Part shown: piece by piece, positions 1-9,759 of the stretch
How positions within the stretch are numbered: the stretch's first letter is position 1
How the letters are laid out: the number at the start of each line of letters is the position of its first letter
From: a virus
Lineage: Duplodnaviria > Heunggongvirae > Uroviricota > Caudoviricetes
Reading direction: 5' to 3' (one strand)
IMG/VR virus record: IMGVR_UViG_2657245124_000005
DNA length: 10,772 nucleotides
Notes under the pieces: generated by a model
The model's database searches: none
Seen by the model: the letters and a program-made list of their open reading frames with translations, nothing else
Told to the model about the DNA's origin: nothing
Made by a program: the position numbers and the translations under genes

Positions 1-266
1 ATATCGTTACTGCGGCGCAGTTCACGATTTTCACGCTCCAGCTCTTTCAGACGCTGACGTTCAGCGGTGGTGAGCCCACCATCACCGCCCCCGGTATCCC
101 GCTCATGCTGGCGAACCCAGACGCGCAGAGTCTCTGGCGTACAGCCAATCTTTGGAGCAATGGAACAAATTGCCGCCCATTGTGAGTCATATTCGCCCTG
201 ACTTTCCAGAACCATACGAACTGCCCGTTGACGGACTTCGGGGGAAAAACGAGTATTTTTAGTCAT
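1..266 (-). CDS. IS3-family transposase OrfA (HTH N-terminal ORF), 3' end outside window
   Basis: Minus-strand ORF from ATG at 266..264 translating [89 protein letters not shown] with no stop before the window edge. Not in the ORF track because it is open-ended. Confidence 0.8.
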
Positions 267-320
267 CCTGTTTACCTCTTTCTCAGGAAGTTTAGTCTCC
301 AGGATTCCCGGGGCGGTTCA
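1..320 (-). mobile_element. IS3-family insertion sequence (IS629/IS1203/IS3411-like), terminal part; element continues beyond window start
   Basis: Read on the minus strand from 320 the sequence begins TGAACCGCCCCGGGAATCCTGGAGA, a 5'-TG terminal inverted repeat typical of IS3-family elements, followed by a Shine-Dalgarno and the OrfA start at 266. Naming the IS is from memory of OrfA sequences, not a search. Confidence 0.8.
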
Positions 321-460
321 TCACAGCATTGCGGACGAGATCTTACTTTTGAAGGAATTAATCCCTTAAAACCGGCGGCAATGGACGACCAGGTCACATC
401 TTCATGATTATTAGCCGCCCATGCCCCCCAACGCTCAAGAACCATCTGAATATCACGCAT
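321..460 (-). pseudogene. Q antiterminator-like gene (QuuQ/QuuD-like), N-terminal ~46 codons, interrupted by the IS
   Basis: ATG at 460..458 with GGAG 8 nt upstream; translation [39 protein letters not shown]... matches my recollection of lambdoid Q-like (YbcQ/QuuD) N-termini. The frame then runs straight into the IS terminal repeat near 320, so the 67-aa track ORF 272..475 is a chimera. Position downstream of ydfU-like gene agrees with Qin gene order. Confidence 0.5.
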
Positions 461-477
461 CAACTTACTCCACAAAA

Positions 478-1527
478 TTAGGCCAGCACACCAATTGCCA
501 GCGCGCGATCGATAAATCGAAAAATCAGCTCCAGTTGGGAGCCATACTTCTCTTCAAATGCCACGGTATCCGTATGCAACTCGTCGTGATGCTTTCTGCA
601 CAAAGGCAAAACAAAGAGATCATGTGCTTTGGTTCCCATTCCGCCCTGCCCGTGACCAATCAGATGATGCGGATCGTCGGCTGGCATACCGCAGCAAGCA
701 CACGGCTGTGTCTTAACCCAGCGTGTGTATTTCTCCTTAACCCACCGGTGACGTTTAGGCAGCTTCATGAAAGATTCCGGAGACTCTGGATCAACGGTGA
801 TGCTTACCACCGTCTTTTCCTGTGATGGGTTTTGTTGCTGGTGGGCGTGAGGCAACGGTGCAAGATTTTTTGTGCGCTGTTTCAATATGCTGGTGGCGGT
901 CTGCTCTCCCGGTACGATGTCGCTTTCGCGGTACACCGAGCAGATTTTTTCCGCTGGTAATCCCAGCGAGCGACGTAATACCGCTTCCGGTAGCGCGTCC
1001 GCCAGCTGATTGCGGACCGCCCACCAGGATAATTCAGCCAGAGATAATTCACGCTCCTGCGTACCGCTTATTGCGTGACCGATGACGTCAATCATCCATG
1101 CTGACAGGTTTTGATGAGCAAGTTGCTCGAGTGATTCGGATGTCTGGTCACGCAGCTGGTTGTCGCAGTGCCAGCACAACACCATTGCGCCGGTACCATA
1201 TCGGTGAATAACGGTTTCGCTGTGATGATAATCGCCGTGTGGCCACTGGCAGGATTTAATATGGCGCAACAGCCAGTCAGACAATGCACCAGCACCACCA
1301 GCAGCACGAATTACCCGTGCGTTACTGAAAAACGGCAGCAATGTTTTGTCTTCCACCAGCGGCTGGCGAACGGCAGGAACGACCCCGGACGGCAGATTAC
1401 GCATGCTTTTCGGTTCCGGCTCCACCAGTACCCGGGTATTGTGGAATACCGGCATGGATTCACGGCCCGGCTTAACGACCACCAGCCCGAGTTCCGGTAC
1501 CAGAACAGGTCGAAGTAATACCCGCAC
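478..1527 (-). CDS. ydfU: DUF968-family prophage protein (YdfU-like) with C-terminal HNH-like Cys/His motif
   Basis: 349-aa ORF with GTG start at 1527 placed 4 nt after GGAGG that overlaps the upstream stop (translational coupling). C-terminus carries CACCG...[10 protein letters not shown]...CRKHHDELH, a zinc-finger/HNH-like pattern. Length equals what I recall for Qin YdfU. Confidence 0.65.
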
Positions 1528-1528
1528 G

Positions 1529-1807
1529 TTACCTCCAGAGGCGTTGCTGGAATGTACGGGACGGACGCGGTGGGCGTTCGGAGTAAGGCAATCTGACTGA
1601 GATTATCCAGTGACGGTAGTCGAGGCTAAGGGCTTTTTTAACCTCGTATCCGCGCCTGCGGTAACACTGAATTATCCATTCAGCCTGCTCTTCAGTGCAT
1701 GGTGGATGCTGGAACCAGTCCGATTTGAATGCATGAAAACGCCGTCCGCACCTGCTGGCAAAGACGGCAGAATCATCAGAATTGTGTAATTTGGTATCGT
1801 GCGCCAT
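1529..1807 (-). CDS. hypothetical prophage protein (position equivalent to rem of Qin)
   Basis: ORF in frame with the 129-aa track ORF; first ATG at 1807 gives 92 aa (MAHDTKLHNSDDSAVF...). The track start at 1918 is a TTG with an unconvincing N-terminal extension. Start choice is uncertain. Confidence 0.45.
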   Translation of the reverse strand: MAHDTKLHNSDDSAVFASRCGRRFHAFKSDWFQHPPCTEEQAEWIIQCYRRRGYEVKKALSLDYRHWIISVRLPYSERPPRPSRTFQQRLWR

Positions 1808-2169
1808 CGGTTGTCTCTGCTGGCGCAGCAGGTGCCAGTTGTTCAGGCTGGCGTATAAAGTATAAATAAACTGGTTCCAGTGTAAAGCCCCTACATTAAT
1901 GGAATAAAAGTCAAACAACAGATTGTTGGGATAAACACAACGCTTATTATTAAAAGCGATTAGATAAATTAAATTTTAATGTTATGCAATTTTACCAGAT
2001 CACCATAACATCTCGTTTGAAACCACCAAAACAACAACCATATCAATTTTGATTATGTTAAAGTGAGTAAATATGGAAAACAACAAATCTGCACATTACG
2101 CTCCTTTTTTATCTGTGATACTTTTTGTTTTATGCTGTGTGTGGGCATTATTTTTATAAAAATATTTAC

Positions 2170-2197
2170 AGATAAAATAAACCCGCCGAAGCGGGTT
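2170..2197 (-). terminator. Rho-independent terminator candidate downstream of hok-like gene
   Basis: Minus-strand stem ACCCGC-loop-GCGGGT (2181..2196) followed by UAUUUUAUCU on the minus strand. Confidence 0.5.
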
Positions 2198-2236
2198 AAG
2201 TGCGGGTGCATTGAGGATGCCTGACACATCAGAGGT

Positions 2237-2258
2237 GGCGAGGGATTTCTCCCTCGCC
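2237..2258 (-). other. perfect 9-bp inverted repeat hairpin immediately 3' of hok-like stop
   Basis: GGCGAGGGA tttc TCCCTCGCC at 2237..2258, 8 nt after the stop at 2266; no U-tract, so more likely an mRNA 3' structural element than a terminator. Confidence 0.4.
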
Positions 2259-2265
2259 TGGTCTC

Positions 2266-2421
2266 TTACTCCTCAGGTTCGTAAGCTGTGAAGACAGCGA
2301 CCTCCGTCTGGCCGGTTCGGATTCGTACCTCGCAGAGGTCTTTCCTCGTTACCAGTGCCGTCACTATGACGGTTAAACAGATGACGATCAGGGCGATTAA
2401 CATCGCCTTTTGCTGCTTCAT
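2266..2421 (-). CDS. hokD: Hok-family type I toxin (HokD/RelF-like small membrane protein)
   Basis: ATG at 2421..2419 with AAGGAG 9 nt upstream; 51 aa MKQQKAMLIALIVICLTVIVTALVTRKDLCEVRIRTGQTEVAVFTAYEPEE: single N-terminal transmembrane helix plus conserved C-terminal Cys pattern of Hok/Gef proteins. The track ORF adds 19 in-frame upstream codons from an ATG at 2478. Confidence 0.8.
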   Translation of the reverse strand: MKQQKAMLIALIVICLTVIVTALVTRKDLCEVRIRTGQTEVAVFTAYEPEE

Positions 2422-2779
2422 AGCCTGCTTCTCCTTGCCTTTCGGCACGTAAGAGGCTAACCTACATGTGTCTAGCATGAAATTGGCCTCAGATTAATGT
2501 TAAGCGTCTTGCAGGACGCGTAATGTTAACTGGGGCTTTTCTCTATCTGCCTTTGGTGTTCATGCCTGAGGCAGATAGCCTCAAGCACCCGCAGCAATTC
2601 TACTTAACTCACGTCACCTCGCCAATATAAAATCAATCAGAAAGGCGATCCGTAAGAACAACAGCAAGACAATAAATTGCCATTACAGCCGCAATAGCTA
2701 GCGCACATTTGAGAACCAGCACGACAACCTCCTGTATTGGACGTACACCAGTCCTGATAAATATGAGGCTGTCTCATCA

Positions 2780-2807
2780 TTGATTCAATATAACTATTGG
2801 GTATAGT
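2780..2807 (+). promoter_or_regulatory. candidate sigma70 promoter upstream of the AbiH-like cassette
   Basis: TTGATT (2780..2785), 16-bp spacer, TATAGT (2802..2807). Sequence-pattern only; would imply a ~230-nt leader. Confidence 0.25.
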
Positions 2808-3036
2808 TTCTGTGATTTTGTTCTGTAGAAATGGAACACAACAACCAGTCTCCACCAGCACTTCTTTAAATACGCCAAGTCCGACGCAAGCTAACCTTCT
2901 AGTCCGCTTTGAGCGAACTGTGGAAGCTCGCAAATGTTGTTACATCTGATGAAGGCATTACTCAAAGGAGGGGATAGTAGTCAACGTGGAGCAGGCCATG
3001 TTAGTATTTTTATACAATTCGACTAAGGGAAAAACA

Positions 3037-3906
3037 ATGAGGCTTTACATAATAGGAAATGGATTTGACATGCGTCATGGCTTACCAACAGGATACAAGC
3101 ACTTTAAGTCGTATGTAGAAAAAAATGACCAAGATCTATATGACGCGATAGAAGAATACATTCCTGCTGGGGACGAGTGGAATGAGTTAGAAAATGCTTT
3201 AGGTGAAATTGATTATGAGCTTATCCTTCAAAACAGTGAGATATTTTTGGCTTCATACAATACCGATGATTGGAGCGATGCTTATCATCACGATTACCAA
3301 TATGAAGTAAATAAAATCACACAAATGCTGTCAGCTCGTTTGAAGGAGCAATTCGCTGATTGGGTTAAAGGGATTAACATAGCCGATGCTTACAATCCTA
3401 AGCAATACATCCCGCCCATACCAAGAGAAAGCATCTATTTTTCATTTAATTATACAAATACCTTGCAGCAGATCTATGCCGTTCCAGACGAGCAAATCAT
3501 ACATATTCACGGCAATTGTAGTTACGATGACGATCTCATACTTGGTCATAGTTTTAGGGTGGAAAAGTCACTAAATCCATATATAGGACCGGATCAAGAT
3601 ACAAGAATAGCAGAGGCATACGACAGAATAAACGAATACTTCGGTAATACATTCAAGCCCAGCGAAGACATAATTAAAGAAGAAAACGTTTTTTTCTCAT
3701 CGCTTAAAAATGTGGACGAGGTCATCGTTTTAGGCCACTCGCTCGCCGAAGTTGACGGTGAATACTTTACTGAAATAAATAAAAGCATCCAAGAAAATGC
3801 TCGATGGATAGTTGCTTTATATAGAGGTGAGAAAAAATCAGGCAGTTTAGAAGATTATGGTATCAGAGGCTCAAATATTTCTTACGTACAGTATGAAGAT
3901 ATCTGA
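3037..3906 (+). CDS. AbiH-family abortive-infection protein homolog
   Basis: N-terminus MRLYIIGNGFDMRHGLPTGYKHFKSY matches the hallmark IIGNGFD..HGL..Y motif of the AbiH family (Pfam PF14253, from memory). ATG at 3037 is preceded by AAGGGA; in-frame alternative starts at GTG 2986 (preceded by AAGGAGGGG) and ATG 2998. Codon composition is AT-rich, unlike the flanking prophage genes. Confidence 0.75.
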   Translation: MRLYIIGNGFDMRHGLPTGYKHFKSYVEKNDQDLYDAIEEYIPAGDEWNELENALGEIDYELILQNSEIFLASYNTDDWSDAYHHDYQYEVNKITQMLSARLKEQFADWVKGINIADAYNPKQYIPPIPRESIYFSFNYTNTLQQIYAVPDEQIIHIHGNCSYDDDLILGHSFRVEKSLNPYIGPDQDTRIAEAYDRINEYFGNTFKPSEDIIKEENVFFSSLKNVDEVIVLGHSLAEVDGEYFTEINKSIQENARWIVALYRGEKKSGSLEDYGIRGSNISYVQYEDI

Positions 3907-3995
3907 ATGAGACTTCATATTATAACTATAATTATGTAAAAAAGGCTGGTATTTTATACCTTGAGGAAAATAGATAAGAGGAATGAGGTTTGGTT

Positions 3996-5387
3996 ATGAT
4001 GAATTATACTGATGAGTCAACTTTTCTTGAAAAGTACAAACCGTTTAGGAAGTTTTGGACAATTTTATCACCTCATTATGTATCTTTAATGCATGCACTT
4101 GCCAAAATGATAAGGGGAGGGAATCCAATTCAAGAACTACCTTCCAATGATGAGGATTTTCTTGCAGAGTATGAAACCTGTCTCAAAAATTGGAAAGACT
4201 CACAAAAAATCATATCTTTTGAGATTATTATTCGGCTGAGAGATATAAAAAGATTGGAAACTGAAAAAAAAGAGCACCATCGAAACAAGGATAAAGAAAA
4301 TAAAGAAAAGTGTATTGATGAAATAAGTTTAAAAAAATTTGAAATTCTTATTCTTCGCCGTTGTATTGACTCAATAATTTGGAGCATTCTTGATGAAGAA
4401 CACTCTAGTTTGCGGCGTTTACCTATTAATGCAAGCAATGACAATCTATCAGAAGATAACATAATTGATTCTATGGTCGCAGCCGATCTTATCAACCAGG
4501 ACAAACACTCCGTAGCGATTGTCTCTGACATGAGCACATTTGTTCATGTGGGAGATTTAGTCACCTTTAATCTACTGGATGGCTTCCAGCTCGTGGAAGT
4601 TAAAACAGGTGAAAAGAATAATGAGCTTTATGAAGCTGCTGAATTTTCTGTTATCTCAGAATGTCCGCACTTTGAAGAAAACTTCATTAACAATATGCCT
4701 GATAATGATGTTAAGCAATTTAATCGCATAAAAAGGCAAATCATTCGTGGCATGAATGTTCTGGAGGCGATTAATACTGGCGAGGGCTTTGACAACTTTC
4801 ATCAGTCTAAAGTTAAAATCAATGAGATAGATCATCCGTCTGAATTTTATACCCACCGCTTAGTTAAAATGTGGGAGATTATTCGCGGAGGAAAAAATTG
4901 GGCAATTGATACTATTGATGAATGTTTGTTCTTAGGTATGTACCGTGATTCTGAAATGGGCTTTGTTGCCTTCAATGGATGGATGGATAGTCTCGGTATA
5001 AAAAGCCCTGTTGTGAATATAAATGATTCATTCTTTGACCCTTTGTCTCGACCATTTATGAGTTTGCATCTGCCAACTGAAATGCTCTCCGATCTCATGT
5101 CGGGACAAATAATCATCGTCATGTGTTTTGACAATGAACTTTTTTTTCACCGTGCTAACAAAACGTACCCGGGTTTATATCTCCTTAGCGATGCAGCAAG
5201 AACAAAGCAGCCATTAGAAAATATTCTTCGTGTTGGTTCACAAGGGATAGCTTCTTACGTAGATGGGAATACCAGCTTTTTAGGTAATGGTATTGAATCC
5301 CGTATCCTTTTCGATCAGCAACGACCCGACAACATTATTGAGTGGAGCTATGCTAGAAGCGATCTCAAAAAGCAACATGAAGCATAA
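3996..5387 (+). CDS. unknown 463-aa protein co-oriented with AbiH-like gene; putative PD-(D/E)xK-like nuclease motif
   Basis: ATG at 3996 with GAGG 7 nt upstream (track start 3990 is TTG). Long uninterrupted AT-rich ORF, 89 bp after the AbiH-like stop. Contains HVGD(189)LV...LVE(203)VK(205) by track numbering (nt 4554..4604), the spacing of a PD-(D/E)xK core, and a Lys/Glu-rich stretch (RDIKRLETEKKEHHRNKDKENKEK). No Walker A motif seen. Confidence 0.7.
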   Translation: MMNYTDESTFLEKYKPFRKFWTILSPHYVSLMHALAKMIRGGNPIQELPSNDEDFLAEYETCLKNWKDSQKIISFEIIIRLRDIKRLETEKKEHHRNKDKENKEKCIDEISLKKFEILILRRCIDSIIWSILDEEHSSLRRLPINASNDNLSEDNIIDSMVAADLINQDKHSVAIVSDMSTFVHVGDLVTFNLLDGFQLVEVKTGEKNNELYEAAEFSVISECPHFEENFINNMPDNDVKQFNRIKRQIIRGMNVLEAINTGEGFDNFHQSKVKINEIDHPSEFYTHRLVKMWEIIRGGKNWAIDTIDECLFLGMYRDSEMGFVAFNGWMDSLGIKSPVVNINDSFFDPLSRPFMSLHLPTEMLSDLMSGQIIIVMCFDNELFFHRANKTYPGLYLLSDAARTKQPLENILRVGSQGIASYVDGNTSFLGNGIESRILFDQQRPDNIIEWSYARSDLKKQHEA

Positions 5388-5649
5388 GCCGTTGGATGGG
5401 ATTTCCCATGAATTGCCATGGATAATCTAGACACTTCGAGCCGTTGATAATGTTGATTTTCGTATTCTGTCGGTGGAGTATCCCGAAAGGTATAGAGCAA
5501 AACCTGGAGAAAACACACAGCATCCCATTTTAATCTTTAACTCTGACCTTCCATAATGTCCGCTGTTGGCACAAAGCGGACAACCACGCTAGCTCTACCC
5601 TGTGCCACAAAATGTCAATTTGCATCTGAACTAATGCACTTTAATCTCG

Positions 5650-6072
5650 TCACTTCAATAAATACCGAACATCCCCCTGATAAAACGACAATATGCGCTG
5701 CATAACTTCGCTTTTACGACACTCAGTACAAATCATATTATGACGCCTGTCGTAACGACGTATTTCTCCATCAGGTAATGACCAGATAAGGTCCGGATCA
5801 ACCGCAGATGGTTTCTTCAGCTTTGCCCTTGAGAGCTTTTTACGGGCATTTTGCCAGTCCTTACGCGCCTGTTCAGACGGGAATAACCCGTAACCAGAGT
5901 TGTATACATCGCCACTGGCAACCAGCTCTCTGGCCAGAACGCTCATCAGATATCTTGTTGCCCCAGTTTTAGTTTCCAGTTGTCGTAACGTCTCGCGCCC
6001 ACTCTGGCGTACGAGTTCAACAACCTGCCCTTTAATTTTTTCCCGCTCTTCTTGTGTAAAAACTTTTGCCAC
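5650..6072 (-). CDS. hypothetical prophage protein (140 aa) downstream of replication initiator
   Basis: GTG start at 6072 with AGGAGG 4 nt upstream; basic protein with a CTEC motif. Occupies the place where lambdoid phages usually carry P/DnaC-like loader genes but is too small and has no Walker A motif. Confidence 0.55.
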   Translation of the reverse strand: MAKVFTQEEREKIKGQVVELVRQSGRETLRQLETKTGATRYLMSVLARELVASGDVYNSGYGLFPSEQARKDWQNARKKLSRAKLKKPSAVDPDLIWSLPDGEIRRYDRRHNMICTECRKSEVMQRILSFYQGDVRYLLK

Positions 6073-6112
6073 AAGCCCTCCTGAAAATTACCTCATGACC
6101 AGAAATTAACAC

Positions 6113-7183
6113 TTACCCCCTGAAGCCCGGCGGAATTTCGTTATCCGGTTCAGAAATATGATTCACACAACGCTGGTTGTTCGTGCCGCTTACCGGGAGC
6201 AACCAGGGGTTCTCAAAATTCCGGTCCGGTCCAAAAAACGTCGTCGCTCGCTGAACAAATTCCGTTCCCGTTTTCCCGGTAGCCGCCAAGTATCTTGCGT
6301 AACGCCTCACGCCATCCAGCATGGCCTCTGGTGGCACCCCCTCGCGTAATCTGGCCTTCCAGGCACTGAAAGCGGATTTCTTCGGGTTTGCTCCGGCACG
6401 CAACGGGTACTCCCGCCAGACCTGTTCGAACACATCCGGATAATCCACTCGTCCCACAGACTGCCCGGTGTTTTCCGGGACTACCCGATCGGCTTCCCGC
6501 TGAATGGCGGAATCGGCTTCGGGCTGCTGCAGTTGGTGTGATTGCTCCGGCCTTGCGGTCATCACCTGCTGCACAGCGCCCGAATCGGCTTTCAGCGCAT
6601 ACGCTGAATCGGCTTCCGGTGTCGTGCCTGCTGGCTGACCAAGATTGACGGTCTGAACATCCCCTGCCTGGTTCGTGGCGTTTTTTACGCCATGGACCAT
6701 AGTGTTTTGATCTTCTTGATCTGTATCTTTATCTGTATCTTTATCTGTCGTGACTCGTCGTGACATGTGCGTGACATTTCGTGACGCGCCGTGACAATCG
6801 CCATTTTGTTCCCGCTTTCTTTCCCTCTCTCGCTGCGCCCTCTTGCGCTCTGCAGGAGATTTTGCGGTTTGCGAAATATTGCCGTTGTCCTCTTTAAGCA
6901 CCTGGCGTTTTTCCCATCCAGTGATTAAATCACCATCAAGTACCCGCCCCTGCATCGTCTGCAAAATTGAATCAATCACCTCTTCTGTCACGTCGAGCGC
7001 ACTTGCCAAATCTTCTGTCGTGACATCAATGTGACCTCGCGTGACATTTCGTGACGCGCTCACCAAGAGGTGGATATACACTGCCATCACTGTTGCAATT
7101 GGCTGCCCTGACACCCTGGCAATTGTTCGCCACTTAGGGTCATTTGGCATGTCATGCCATAATCTGAGCCAGGCGTTAGCCAT
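6113..7183 (-). CDS. phage replication initiation protein (O-like / replisome organizer)
   Basis: ATG at 7183 with GAGGTG upstream (track GTG at 7189 also possible). N-terminus WLRLWHDMPNDPKWRTIARVSGQPIATVMAVYIHLL resembles the phage replisome-organizer N-terminal HTH domain; the gene contains two iteron clusters, as lambda O contains ori. Confidence 0.7.
   Translation of the reverse strand: MANAWLRLWHDMPNDPKWRTIARVSGQPIATVMAVYIHLLVSASRNVTRGHIDVTTEDLASALDVTEEVIDSILQTMQGRVLDGDLITGWEKRQVLKEDNGNISQTAKSPAERKRAQRERERKREQNGDCHGASRNVTHMSRRVTTDKDTDKDTDQEDQNTMVHGVKNATNQAGDVQTVNLGQPAGTTPEADSAYALKADSGAVQQVMTARPEQSHQLQQPEADSAIQREADRVVPENTGQSVGRVDYPDVFEQVWREYPLRAGANPKKSAFSAWKARLREGVPPEAMLDGVRRYARYLAATGKTGTEFVQRATTFFGPDRNFENPWLLPVSGTNNQRCVNHISEPDNEIPPGFRG
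6712..6747. repeat. short tandem repeat (12-bp unit TCTGTATCTTTA, about 2.5 copies) inside the replication gene
   Basis: gatctgtatctttatctgtatctttatctgt; encodes TDKDTDKDTD in the O-like protein. Confidence 0.6.
6750..6795. repeat. iteron cluster 1: five GTGAC motifs phased every 10-11 bp
   Basis: GTGAC at 6750, 6760, 6771, 6781, 6791. Shares the 19-mer GTGACATTTCGTGACGCGC (6771..6789) with cluster 2. Confidence 0.55.
7020..7059. repeat. iteron cluster 2: four GTGAC motifs phased every 10-11 bp
   Basis: GTGAC at 7020, 7031, 7041, 7051; exact 19-mer GTGACATTTCGTGACGCGC at 7041..7059. TCTTCTGTC also occurs twice (6981..6989, 7011..7019) with an inverted GTCAC at 6987..6991. Confidence 0.55.
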
Positions 7184-8010: not shown

Positions 8011-8430
8011 ATGGTTCATGAAGATAAAGCGCGTAAAGAGTTCGCCAGTAGGCTTGCGCTAGCCTGTGAAAACGCTGGTTATGAACAACATGGAAGGCAG
8101 GCAGAAATTGCCCGTCGAATGAAATTAACACCAAAAGCGGTTAGCAAATGGTTTAATGGCGAAACAATTCCTCGCCGGGAGAAATTAAGGGAATTAGCAA
8201 CACTAATAGGAACAACACCAACCTATCTTTTGGGAGAGGATACAGAAGAAAGTGGACAGGTACGTTTCTATCAGGAGTTAAATCCAAGACAAAAAATCAT
8301 CATTGACCTTCTGGACGAGCTCCCTGACAGTGAGACAGATGAACTTTTAAAAACTCTTGAAGAGAAAAAACAGAAGTACAATGCAATTTACGAAGAGTTA
8401 GCACGAAAGAAAAAACAAAAAGCCTCTTAA
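8011..8430 (+). CDS. DicA/RacR-type prophage repressor (XRE-family HTH, C-terminal acidic/coiled region)
   Basis: 139 aa; HTH_3-like segment QAEIARRMKLTPKAVSKWFNGETIPRREKLRELATLIGTTPTYLL. Same architecture as DicA but the sequence is not the K-12 DicA as I recall it. Confidence 0.75.
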   Translation: MVHEDKARKEFASRLALACENAGYEQHGRQAEIARRMKLTPKAVSKWFNGETIPRREKLRELATLIGTTPTYLLGEDTEESGQVRFYQELNPRQKIIIDLLDELPDSETDELLKTLEEKKQKYNAIYEELARKKKQKAS

Positions 8431-9701: not shown

Positions 9702-9759
9702 TTTCTGGTGACGTTTGGCGGTATCAGTTTTACTCCGTGACTGCTCTGCCGCCGTTTTT
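9702..9759 (+). ncRNA. dicF: DicF small regulatory RNA
   Basis: TTTCTGGTGACGTTTGGCGGTATCAGTTTTACTCCGTGACTGCTCTGCCGCCGTTTTT matches the DicF sequence as I remember it. It ends in a GGCGG/CCGCC stem (9717..9721 with 9749..9753) plus T5 (9755..9759) and lies just upstream of dicB, as in Qin. Confidence 0.85.

Follow-up and report, generated by a model that had tools for sequence, protein, structure and literature searches.

An AbiH and DS-37 gene cassette as anti-phage cargo in the hokD/DUF977 slot of a lambdoid Escherichia coli prophage of Qin/Rac type

The stretch of DNA analysed here (10,772 nucleotides of the Caudoviricetes record IMGVR_UViG_2657245124_000005; in the following, the window) matches, at 100 % identity, a lambdoid prophage of Qin/Rac type in Escherichia coli MDR_56 and many further strains. 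It harbours a two-gene cassette, composed of an AbiH-family gene and the gene for the anti-phage protein DS-37, between the conserved genes hokD and DUF977. Open reading frames (ORFs) were listed and GC contents, both overall and at third codon positions (GC3), were computed per gene for the window, while names of neighbouring genes were taken from the RefSeq annotation of the identical locus. The gene order reads antiterminator, RusA, DUF968, hypothetical protein, hokD / AbiH, DS-37 / DUF977, replisome organiser, YdaT, cro-like, cI-like. The cassette comprises the following elements:

about 2925..5554, + strand: variable cargo (moron) of ~2.6 kb with both defence genes, delimited by blastn breakpoints and alternative cargos
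3037..3906, + strand: AbiH-family gene, 289 amino acids (aa), identified by PF14253, the PADLOC AbiH model, a full-length match to PHROG 19951 and putatively Sir2-like motifs
3907..3995, + strand: AT-rich intergenic region of 89 bp with hexamers resembling TATAAT and, 7 nt 5' of the DS-37 start codon ATG, a GAGG ribosome-binding site
3996..5387, + strand: DS-37 gene, WP_000982358.1, 463 aa, identified by accession and sequence identity, conservation and an AlphaFold2 (AF2) model

An earlier note on this DNA, made from the sequence alone, had described two co-oriented, AT-rich genes 89 bp apart, in agreement with the ORF listing and with GC contents of 0.376 (AbiH) and 0.368 (DS-37) versus 0.47-0.54 for DUF968, hokD, DUF977, the replisome organiser and YdaT; GC3 values are 0.36 and 0.34 versus 0.44-0.66 in the same neighbours. 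The note had further placed both genes opposite to every flanking gene. This applies to the early-right operon, the genes of which (DUF968, hokD, DUF977, replisome organiser, YdaT and cro-like) are located on the - strand, rendering AbiH and DS-37 antisense to it; it does not apply to the cI-like repressor gene (8011..8430) and the genes past it, which share the + strand.

The first gene unambiguously encodes an AbiH-family protein. As expected in the earlier note, its product matches Pfam PF14253 (E 6.6e-69, 233.3 bits at a cut-off of 30.9), covering positions 1-258 of the 260 in the profile, and likewise the PADLOC AbiH model (E 1.3e-27). The ORF extends from a GTG at 2986 to 3906, RefSeq places the start at ATG 2998 (302 aa), and an internal ATG at 3037 yields 289 aa. 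The latter start is favoured by the end-to-end alignment with PHROG 19951 (1-288/288), a 289-aa annotation on a plasmid, an AAGGGA ribosome-binding site and the begin of inter-element homology at 3000. A sirtuin-like fold has been reported for AbiH, with depletion of NAD+ as proposed action (2026 review; PMC13064643), and the motifs GNGFD (at G7), FNYT (at F137) and HIHG (at H156) of the present protein would fit a Sir2-type site. Comparison with sequences of the Protein Data Bank (PDB) yielded chance matches only, and in the literature searched no published phenotype was found for this E. coli AbiH (WP_001297700.1).

The second gene (ORF 3990..5387, with ATG 3996 yielding 463 aa) could not be placed in any family in the earlier note. 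It is WP_000982358.1 in the RefSeq annotation of the 100 %-identical MDR_56 locus, and sequence as well as length match the Table S8 entry of the DefensePredictor study (DeWeirdt, Mahoney, Laub; bioRxiv 2025, Science 2026; PMC13092281), where the protein is construct SC24, designated DS-37 (Tables S6, S8, S11). The gene is, therefore, a validated single-gene system. DS-37 was listed there as "predicted novel defense gene" (DefensePredictor log-odds 6.43, HHblits log-odds -2.24), cloned as a single coding sequence (26984-28375) on a low-copy plasmid with its native promoter region, and scored as defensive (TRUE) in strain MG1655. DS-37 alone conferred a -log(EOP), EOP denoting efficiency of plating, of 4.32 on Bas69 and of 1.94 on SECphi27 (Table S7), equivalent to a drop in plating of ~10^4-fold and ~10^2-fold, respectively; these were the 2 phages affected out of 24 (PMC13092281). 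The upstream AbiH gene is missing from the clone because transcription units were defined in that study by gaps of <=30 bp and only genes not already called by DefenseFinder were tested. Since DS-37 was active when cloned as a separate transcription unit, the 89-bp intergenic region presumably holds a promoter of its own; a generic scan for sigma-70 promoter and terminator signals in the cassette performed no better than on shuffled sequences.

A word-indexed search for the DS-37 family yielded 48 clusters, all from Enterobacterales or Aeromonas. With exhaustive HMMER searching, the number of clusters (50 % identity) rose to 679 for E <= 1e-3, or 500 for E <= 1e-10; most are of ~450 aa, and Pseudomonas and Cronobacter are included. 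The family is thus much broader than the word-indexed search implied. Seven residues (D178, D187, E201, K203, G205, R244 and Q248) are invariant (100 %) in 127 family representatives clustered at 50 % identity, and D187, E201 and K203 likewise in an alignment of 24 homologues. The residues that the earlier note had singled out for mutation as D189, E203 and K205 correspond to D187, E201 and K203 in the 463-aa numbering. The AF2 model (predicted local distance difference test, pLDDT, 82; predicted template modelling score, pTM, 0.83) displays a long N-terminal helical hairpin (~52-132), a helix (153-166) and three strands (172-176, 188-192 and 196-200), followed by helices and a further alpha/beta region. 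D187 is positioned immediately ahead of strand 188-192 and E201-x-K203 immediately past strand 196-200, an arrangement which in the model is the canonical core geometry of PD-(D/E)xK enzymes. HHpred analysis by the authors of PMC13092281 labelled the region PDDEXK/NERD (probability 0.47), and the fold and profile searches performed here gave no significant match to a known PD-(D/E)xK member. Given its defence role, DS-37 is on balance slightly favoured to be a phage-activated nuclease of this type, as judged from residue conservation and predicted fold.

Several observations were made on more distant or incomplete relatives. No Pfam match to a fused domain was obtained for N-terminally extended DS-37 relatives of ~680 aa. 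One such member (678 aa; locus L031, 3174-6037) is distant, possesses a 250-aa N-terminal extension, overlaps the end of a SRAP gene (PF02586) by 4 bp and neighbours ImuB-like and DnaE2-like genes, a context related to DNA damage and not an obvious defence island. In Aeromonas media, the DNA 5' of an annotated 439-aa homologue (L015, ~3870-4000) still encodes a conserved N-terminal segment (..RKYRPFINLWE..), so that the annotation probably begins too late, or else the gene is frameshifted. A scan of GTDB species representatives found DS-37 only in Erwinia oleae and on two tiny contigs and was of no use for co-occurrence statistics. These contigs, assigned to Streptomyces plumbiresistens (583 bp) and Vogesella urethralis (245 bp), carry fragments with 86-90 % identity to DS-37 of E. 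coli and most likely represent enterobacterial contamination of the assemblies.

The cassette occupies a variable slot, the boundaries of which were determined by alignment with three prophages carrying other cargo (L020, L021 and L022). The flanking elements and further RNA features of the window are:

2266..2421, - strand: toxin gene hokD, bordering the variable slot on its conserved left side (as annotated in RefSeq for the 100 %-identical locus)
2889..2924, no strand: left boundary element, one arm of an inverted repeat with its own hairpin (GTCCGCT..AGCGAAC); past its end, prophages with a different cargo are no longer homologous
5559..5594, no strand: right boundary element, second arm of the inverted repeat with its own hairpin (GTCCGCT..AGCGGAC); homology restarts at 5555
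5655..6071, - strand: DUF977 gene, bordering the slot on its conserved right side, with the gene of the replisome organiser next to it (RefSeq annotation)
2416-2590, - strand: sok antisense RNA of hokD (Rfam RF01794, 119.9 bits)
9703-9754, + strand: DicF small RNA (Rfam, 72.5 bits)

The sok and DicF matches are consistent with a Qin-type (dicB/dicF) prophage. Blastn homology to L020 and L022 ends at 2916-2924 and restarts at 5555, that to L021 ends at 2895 and restarts at 5571, and between these breakpoints the other prophages hold the reverse transcriptase of retron Ec67 (L020), an AIPR protein (L021) or the DS-33 pair of WP_014639476.1 and a GNAT protein (L022). The cassette behaviour that the earlier note had proposed to check is thereby confirmed. 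Further cargos encountered in E. coli are, among others, DUF5677, DUF4209, QueH plus a methyltransferase, and runs of hypothetical proteins; those without annotation or with a DUF label may be defence candidates. Thousands of genomes possess the flanks without the cargo, and the whole 2.67-kb region is present in 65 of 5426 complete genomes. Overall, Qin/Rac-type prophages possess a defence hotspot between hokD and DUF977. The bracketing inverted repeat is 36 nt long, imperfect (75 % complementary) and has a perfect core of 10 nt; both arms lie within the conserved flanks, being kept in L020 and L022 and absent from L021, and could serve as insulating terminators or as recombination boundary sequences. 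Neither ToxI-like tandem repeats nor noncoding RNAs were found in the cargo. GenBank phages searched with the cassette by megablast and tblastn gave only a match to 137 bp of flank, and no homologue of DS-37 or AbiH.

Among the complete E. coli genomes, AbiH is intact in 65 and DS-37 in 64. About 51 additional genomes with a partial AbiH gene were considered as possible mosaics without DS-37 and rejected as such, these being IS3- or IS1-truncated remnants in decayed prophages. These ~51 complete genomes retain no more than a 5' fragment of AbiH interrupted by IS3 and have lost DS-37 along with the replication genes, and in one genome AbiH is split by IS1; strains 99-3165, CX04 and N4220121 are examples of such remnants. 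The cassette is, therefore, often inactivated in decaying prophages.

Outside of E. coli, the pair recurs with a 90-bp gap on the Enterobacter hormaechei phage-plasmid pMS-37c in an SSU5-like context (DNA ligase ... phoH). Nucleotide homology to the window is 93 % and covers exactly 3000-5409, from which it follows that AbiH and DS-37 were passed on as a single block among mobile elements that are not related. At the equivalent SSU5-like site of a Klebsiella plasmid, a 51 %-identical AbiH stands alone. A 91 %-identical AbiH is found on Providencia plasmids, such as pZ7CR1848_CTX-M of Providencia huaxiensis (L026), where it is followed 299 bp downstream by a co-oriented gene (5181-6635) for the 484-aa protein WP_140172788.1. 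This protein has no match in Pfam or PADLOC and was rejected as a divergent DS-37 (hhalign probability 0.2 %); its gene may represent another type of neighbour for AbiH or a defence gene not yet recognised.

The AbiH-DS-37 pair was encountered only in a clade of 90-100 % identity. DS-37 homologues at 40-61 % identity lack AbiH and are preceded by PD-T4-5, PDC-S19, a gene of unknown function (Morganella, Pseudomonas) or no partner at all. Stand-alone homologues are present in P2-like prophages of Raoultella, in Yersinia, on pRAHAQ02 of Rahnella and on a small Mob plasmid, and in Aeromonas (L015) a homologue without AbiH neighbours a Gabija-like pair. In a Bacillus cereus plasmid, a 25 %-identical, frameshift-split homologue with retained GD...ELK motif is located directly behind AbiK. 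The conservation of the pair, a check proposed in the earlier note, holds for 64-65 E. coli genomes and pMS-37c and fails for the 40-61 %-identical homologues, and across the DS-37 family AbiH does not co-occur in the manner of an obligate two-gene system. The activity of DS-37 alone, DS-37 homologues without AbiH and close AbiH relatives without DS-37 speak against an obligate two-component variant. The simplest reading is that of two separable single-gene systems hitch-hiking together.

On this basis we regard the following reading as probable. The segment at about 2925-5554 would be a horizontally acquired moron in the hokD/DUF977 slot, which, as it is antisense to the early-right operon, could be expressed in the lysogen. 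Its cargo would consist of two neighbouring anti-phage systems, each of a single gene and functionally separable from the other, that travel together. AbiH would act as a Sir2-like, probably NAD+-consuming abortive-infection (Abi) effector and DS-37 as a phage-activated PD-(D/E)xK-type nuclease with a predicted catalytic centre of D187, E201 and K203, supplemented by D178, R244 and Q248. Oligomerisation or auto-inhibition may be the task of the helical hairpin near the N-terminus of DS-37, and sensing of the trigger that of the C-terminal alpha/beta region. The pair would then represent a mini defence island with complementary ranges and no obligate two-component machine.

Several points weigh against this reading. 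No intact singleton of AbiH or DS-37 exists among the complete E. coli genomes, which hold 64-65 intact pairs, and so tight a linkage could be a sign of functional coupling. DS-37 homologues also follow other defence genes at very short distance, namely 16-18 bp downstream of PD-T4-5 (Abi_2) in Pantoea and Erwinia and 17 bp downstream of PDC-S19 (DUF3644 plus EC042_2821, restriction-endonuclease-like) in Dickeya. With respect to the nuclease assignment, the DS-37 protein gave nothing meaningful against Pfam, NCBIfam, PHROGs and PADLOC-DB 2.0 (2023, older than the description of DS-37), the family profile found chance matches only among PDB sequences, and the literature searched reports neither catalytic mutants nor a mechanism of DS-37. 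No AbiH is known to possess NADase activity.

The foremost alternative is that AbiH and DS-37 constitute one cooperative two-gene system or, more generally, that members of the DS-37 family are dedicated downstream companions of diverse Abi effectors; DS-37 could then be a second effector or back-up on the same signal, or broaden or modulate the action of the upstream gene. The inheritance and transfer of the pair as a unit speak for it, as do the independent lineages in which a co-oriented single-gene defence system (PD-T4-5, PDC-S19 or AbiK) lies directly upstream, and a synteny study (Microlife 2026; PMC13639185) which found 240 of 341 DS-37 instances in RefSeq (71 %) colocalised with AbiH and considered DS-37 as maybe accessory to AbiH. 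The same study, however, found DS-37 next to only 12 % of 1885 AbiH instances, DS-37 cloned alone protects (PMC13092281), about half of the contexts sampled here have no defence partner, and the close AbiH relative in Providencia has another neighbour. Moreover, defence genes cluster anyway, and our sample of DS-37 contexts is small and not controlled for kinship. Taken together, we hold this explanation to be unlikely, although the recurrent order of an Abi gene followed by DS-37 with very short gaps keeps it alive. Similarly doubtful is its broadest form, in which the DS-37 family would be a generic companion functionally coupled to AbiH (Sir2-like), PD-T4-5 (Abi_2/HEPN), PDC-S19 (DUF3644 plus restriction-endonuclease-like) and AbiK (reverse transcriptase), for example as a shared back-up nuclease firing once the upstream effector is blocked by a phage; in that case, a modular two-layer architecture would be on display in the window.

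Very improbable is a cassette that is not primarily antiviral but an addiction or toxin-like module or a phage-phage exclusion cargo stabilising the prophage, with the DS-37 phenotype as side effect of plasmid expression: the slot adjoins the hok/sok addiction module and the phenotype stems from a plasmid clone acting on few phages, but a -log EOP of 4.3 was attained from a low-copy clone with native promoter region (PMC13092281), AbiH is a classical Abi family, retron Ec67, AIPR and DS-33 occupy the same slot in other prophages, and no antitoxin-like small ORF or RNA was found in the cargo.

The preferred reading of two separable systems in one moron agrees with the proposal of the earlier note that the locus is an anti-phage defence cargo, as an AbiH family gene and the validated DS-37 share a variable prophage slot. 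The cassette is a real two-gene anti-phage cargo of an E. coli prophage and as such already known; it is not the new system that the note had considered, because AbiH and DS-37 are both catalogued defence genes and their pairing has been published (PMC13639185). Added here are the boundaries of the hokD/DUF977 slot, its alternative cargos, the transfer of the pair to SSU5-like phage-plasmids, the separability of both genes and the invariant residue set of the DS-37 family. From the latter, D178, D187, E201, K203, R244 and Q248 offer a direct target for mutagenesis, and the slot, being compact and well delimited, lends itself to the search for further defence cargo. The occurrence of DS-37 homologues behind varied single-gene Abi systems, finally, makes it possible to ask concretely and at low cost whether "single-gene" systems act in tandem.

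Among known systems, the closest is DS-37 itself (SC24; a DefenseFinder subtype): accession, length, sequence and species are the same, the single-gene defence is validated, and there is no difference at the protein level. The gene was, however, cloned without the upstream AbiH and its mechanism was not probed (PMC13092281), whereas here it resides in its native prophage slot beside AbiH. The AbiH-DS-37 "synton" (PMC13639185) is the same gene pair; the study on it covers AbiH as the only partner, whereas in the present survey homologues also stand behind PD-T4-5, PDC-S19 and AbiK, or alone. With AbiH of Lactococcus lactis (Prevots 1996; PF14253; PADLOC PDLC02345), the AbiH protein of the window shares the full-length match to the family profile, a single domain of ~290 aa, the location on a mobile element and motifs that would be Sir2-like; it belongs to an enterobacterial clade, however, and its relationship to the lactococcal prototype is only distant.

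Defence effectors of the PD-(D/E)xK type (NERD, Cas4/RecB-like and restriction-endonuclease-like) resemble DS-37 in the invariant D...E-x-K on consecutive predicted strands, the additional invariant acidic and Q residues and the defence role of a single protein. DS-37 differs from them in lacking a significant profile or fold match and in its helical hairpin and C-terminal alpha/beta region of ~200 aa, neither of which has annotated relatives.

For P2 and P4, Rousset et al. (2022) have reportedly described variable hotspots at which temperate phages carry defence genes. The hokD/DUF977 slot is alike in holding interchangeable defence cargo between conserved flanks and differs in its location, between hokD and DUF977 of Qin/Rac-type lambdoid prophages.

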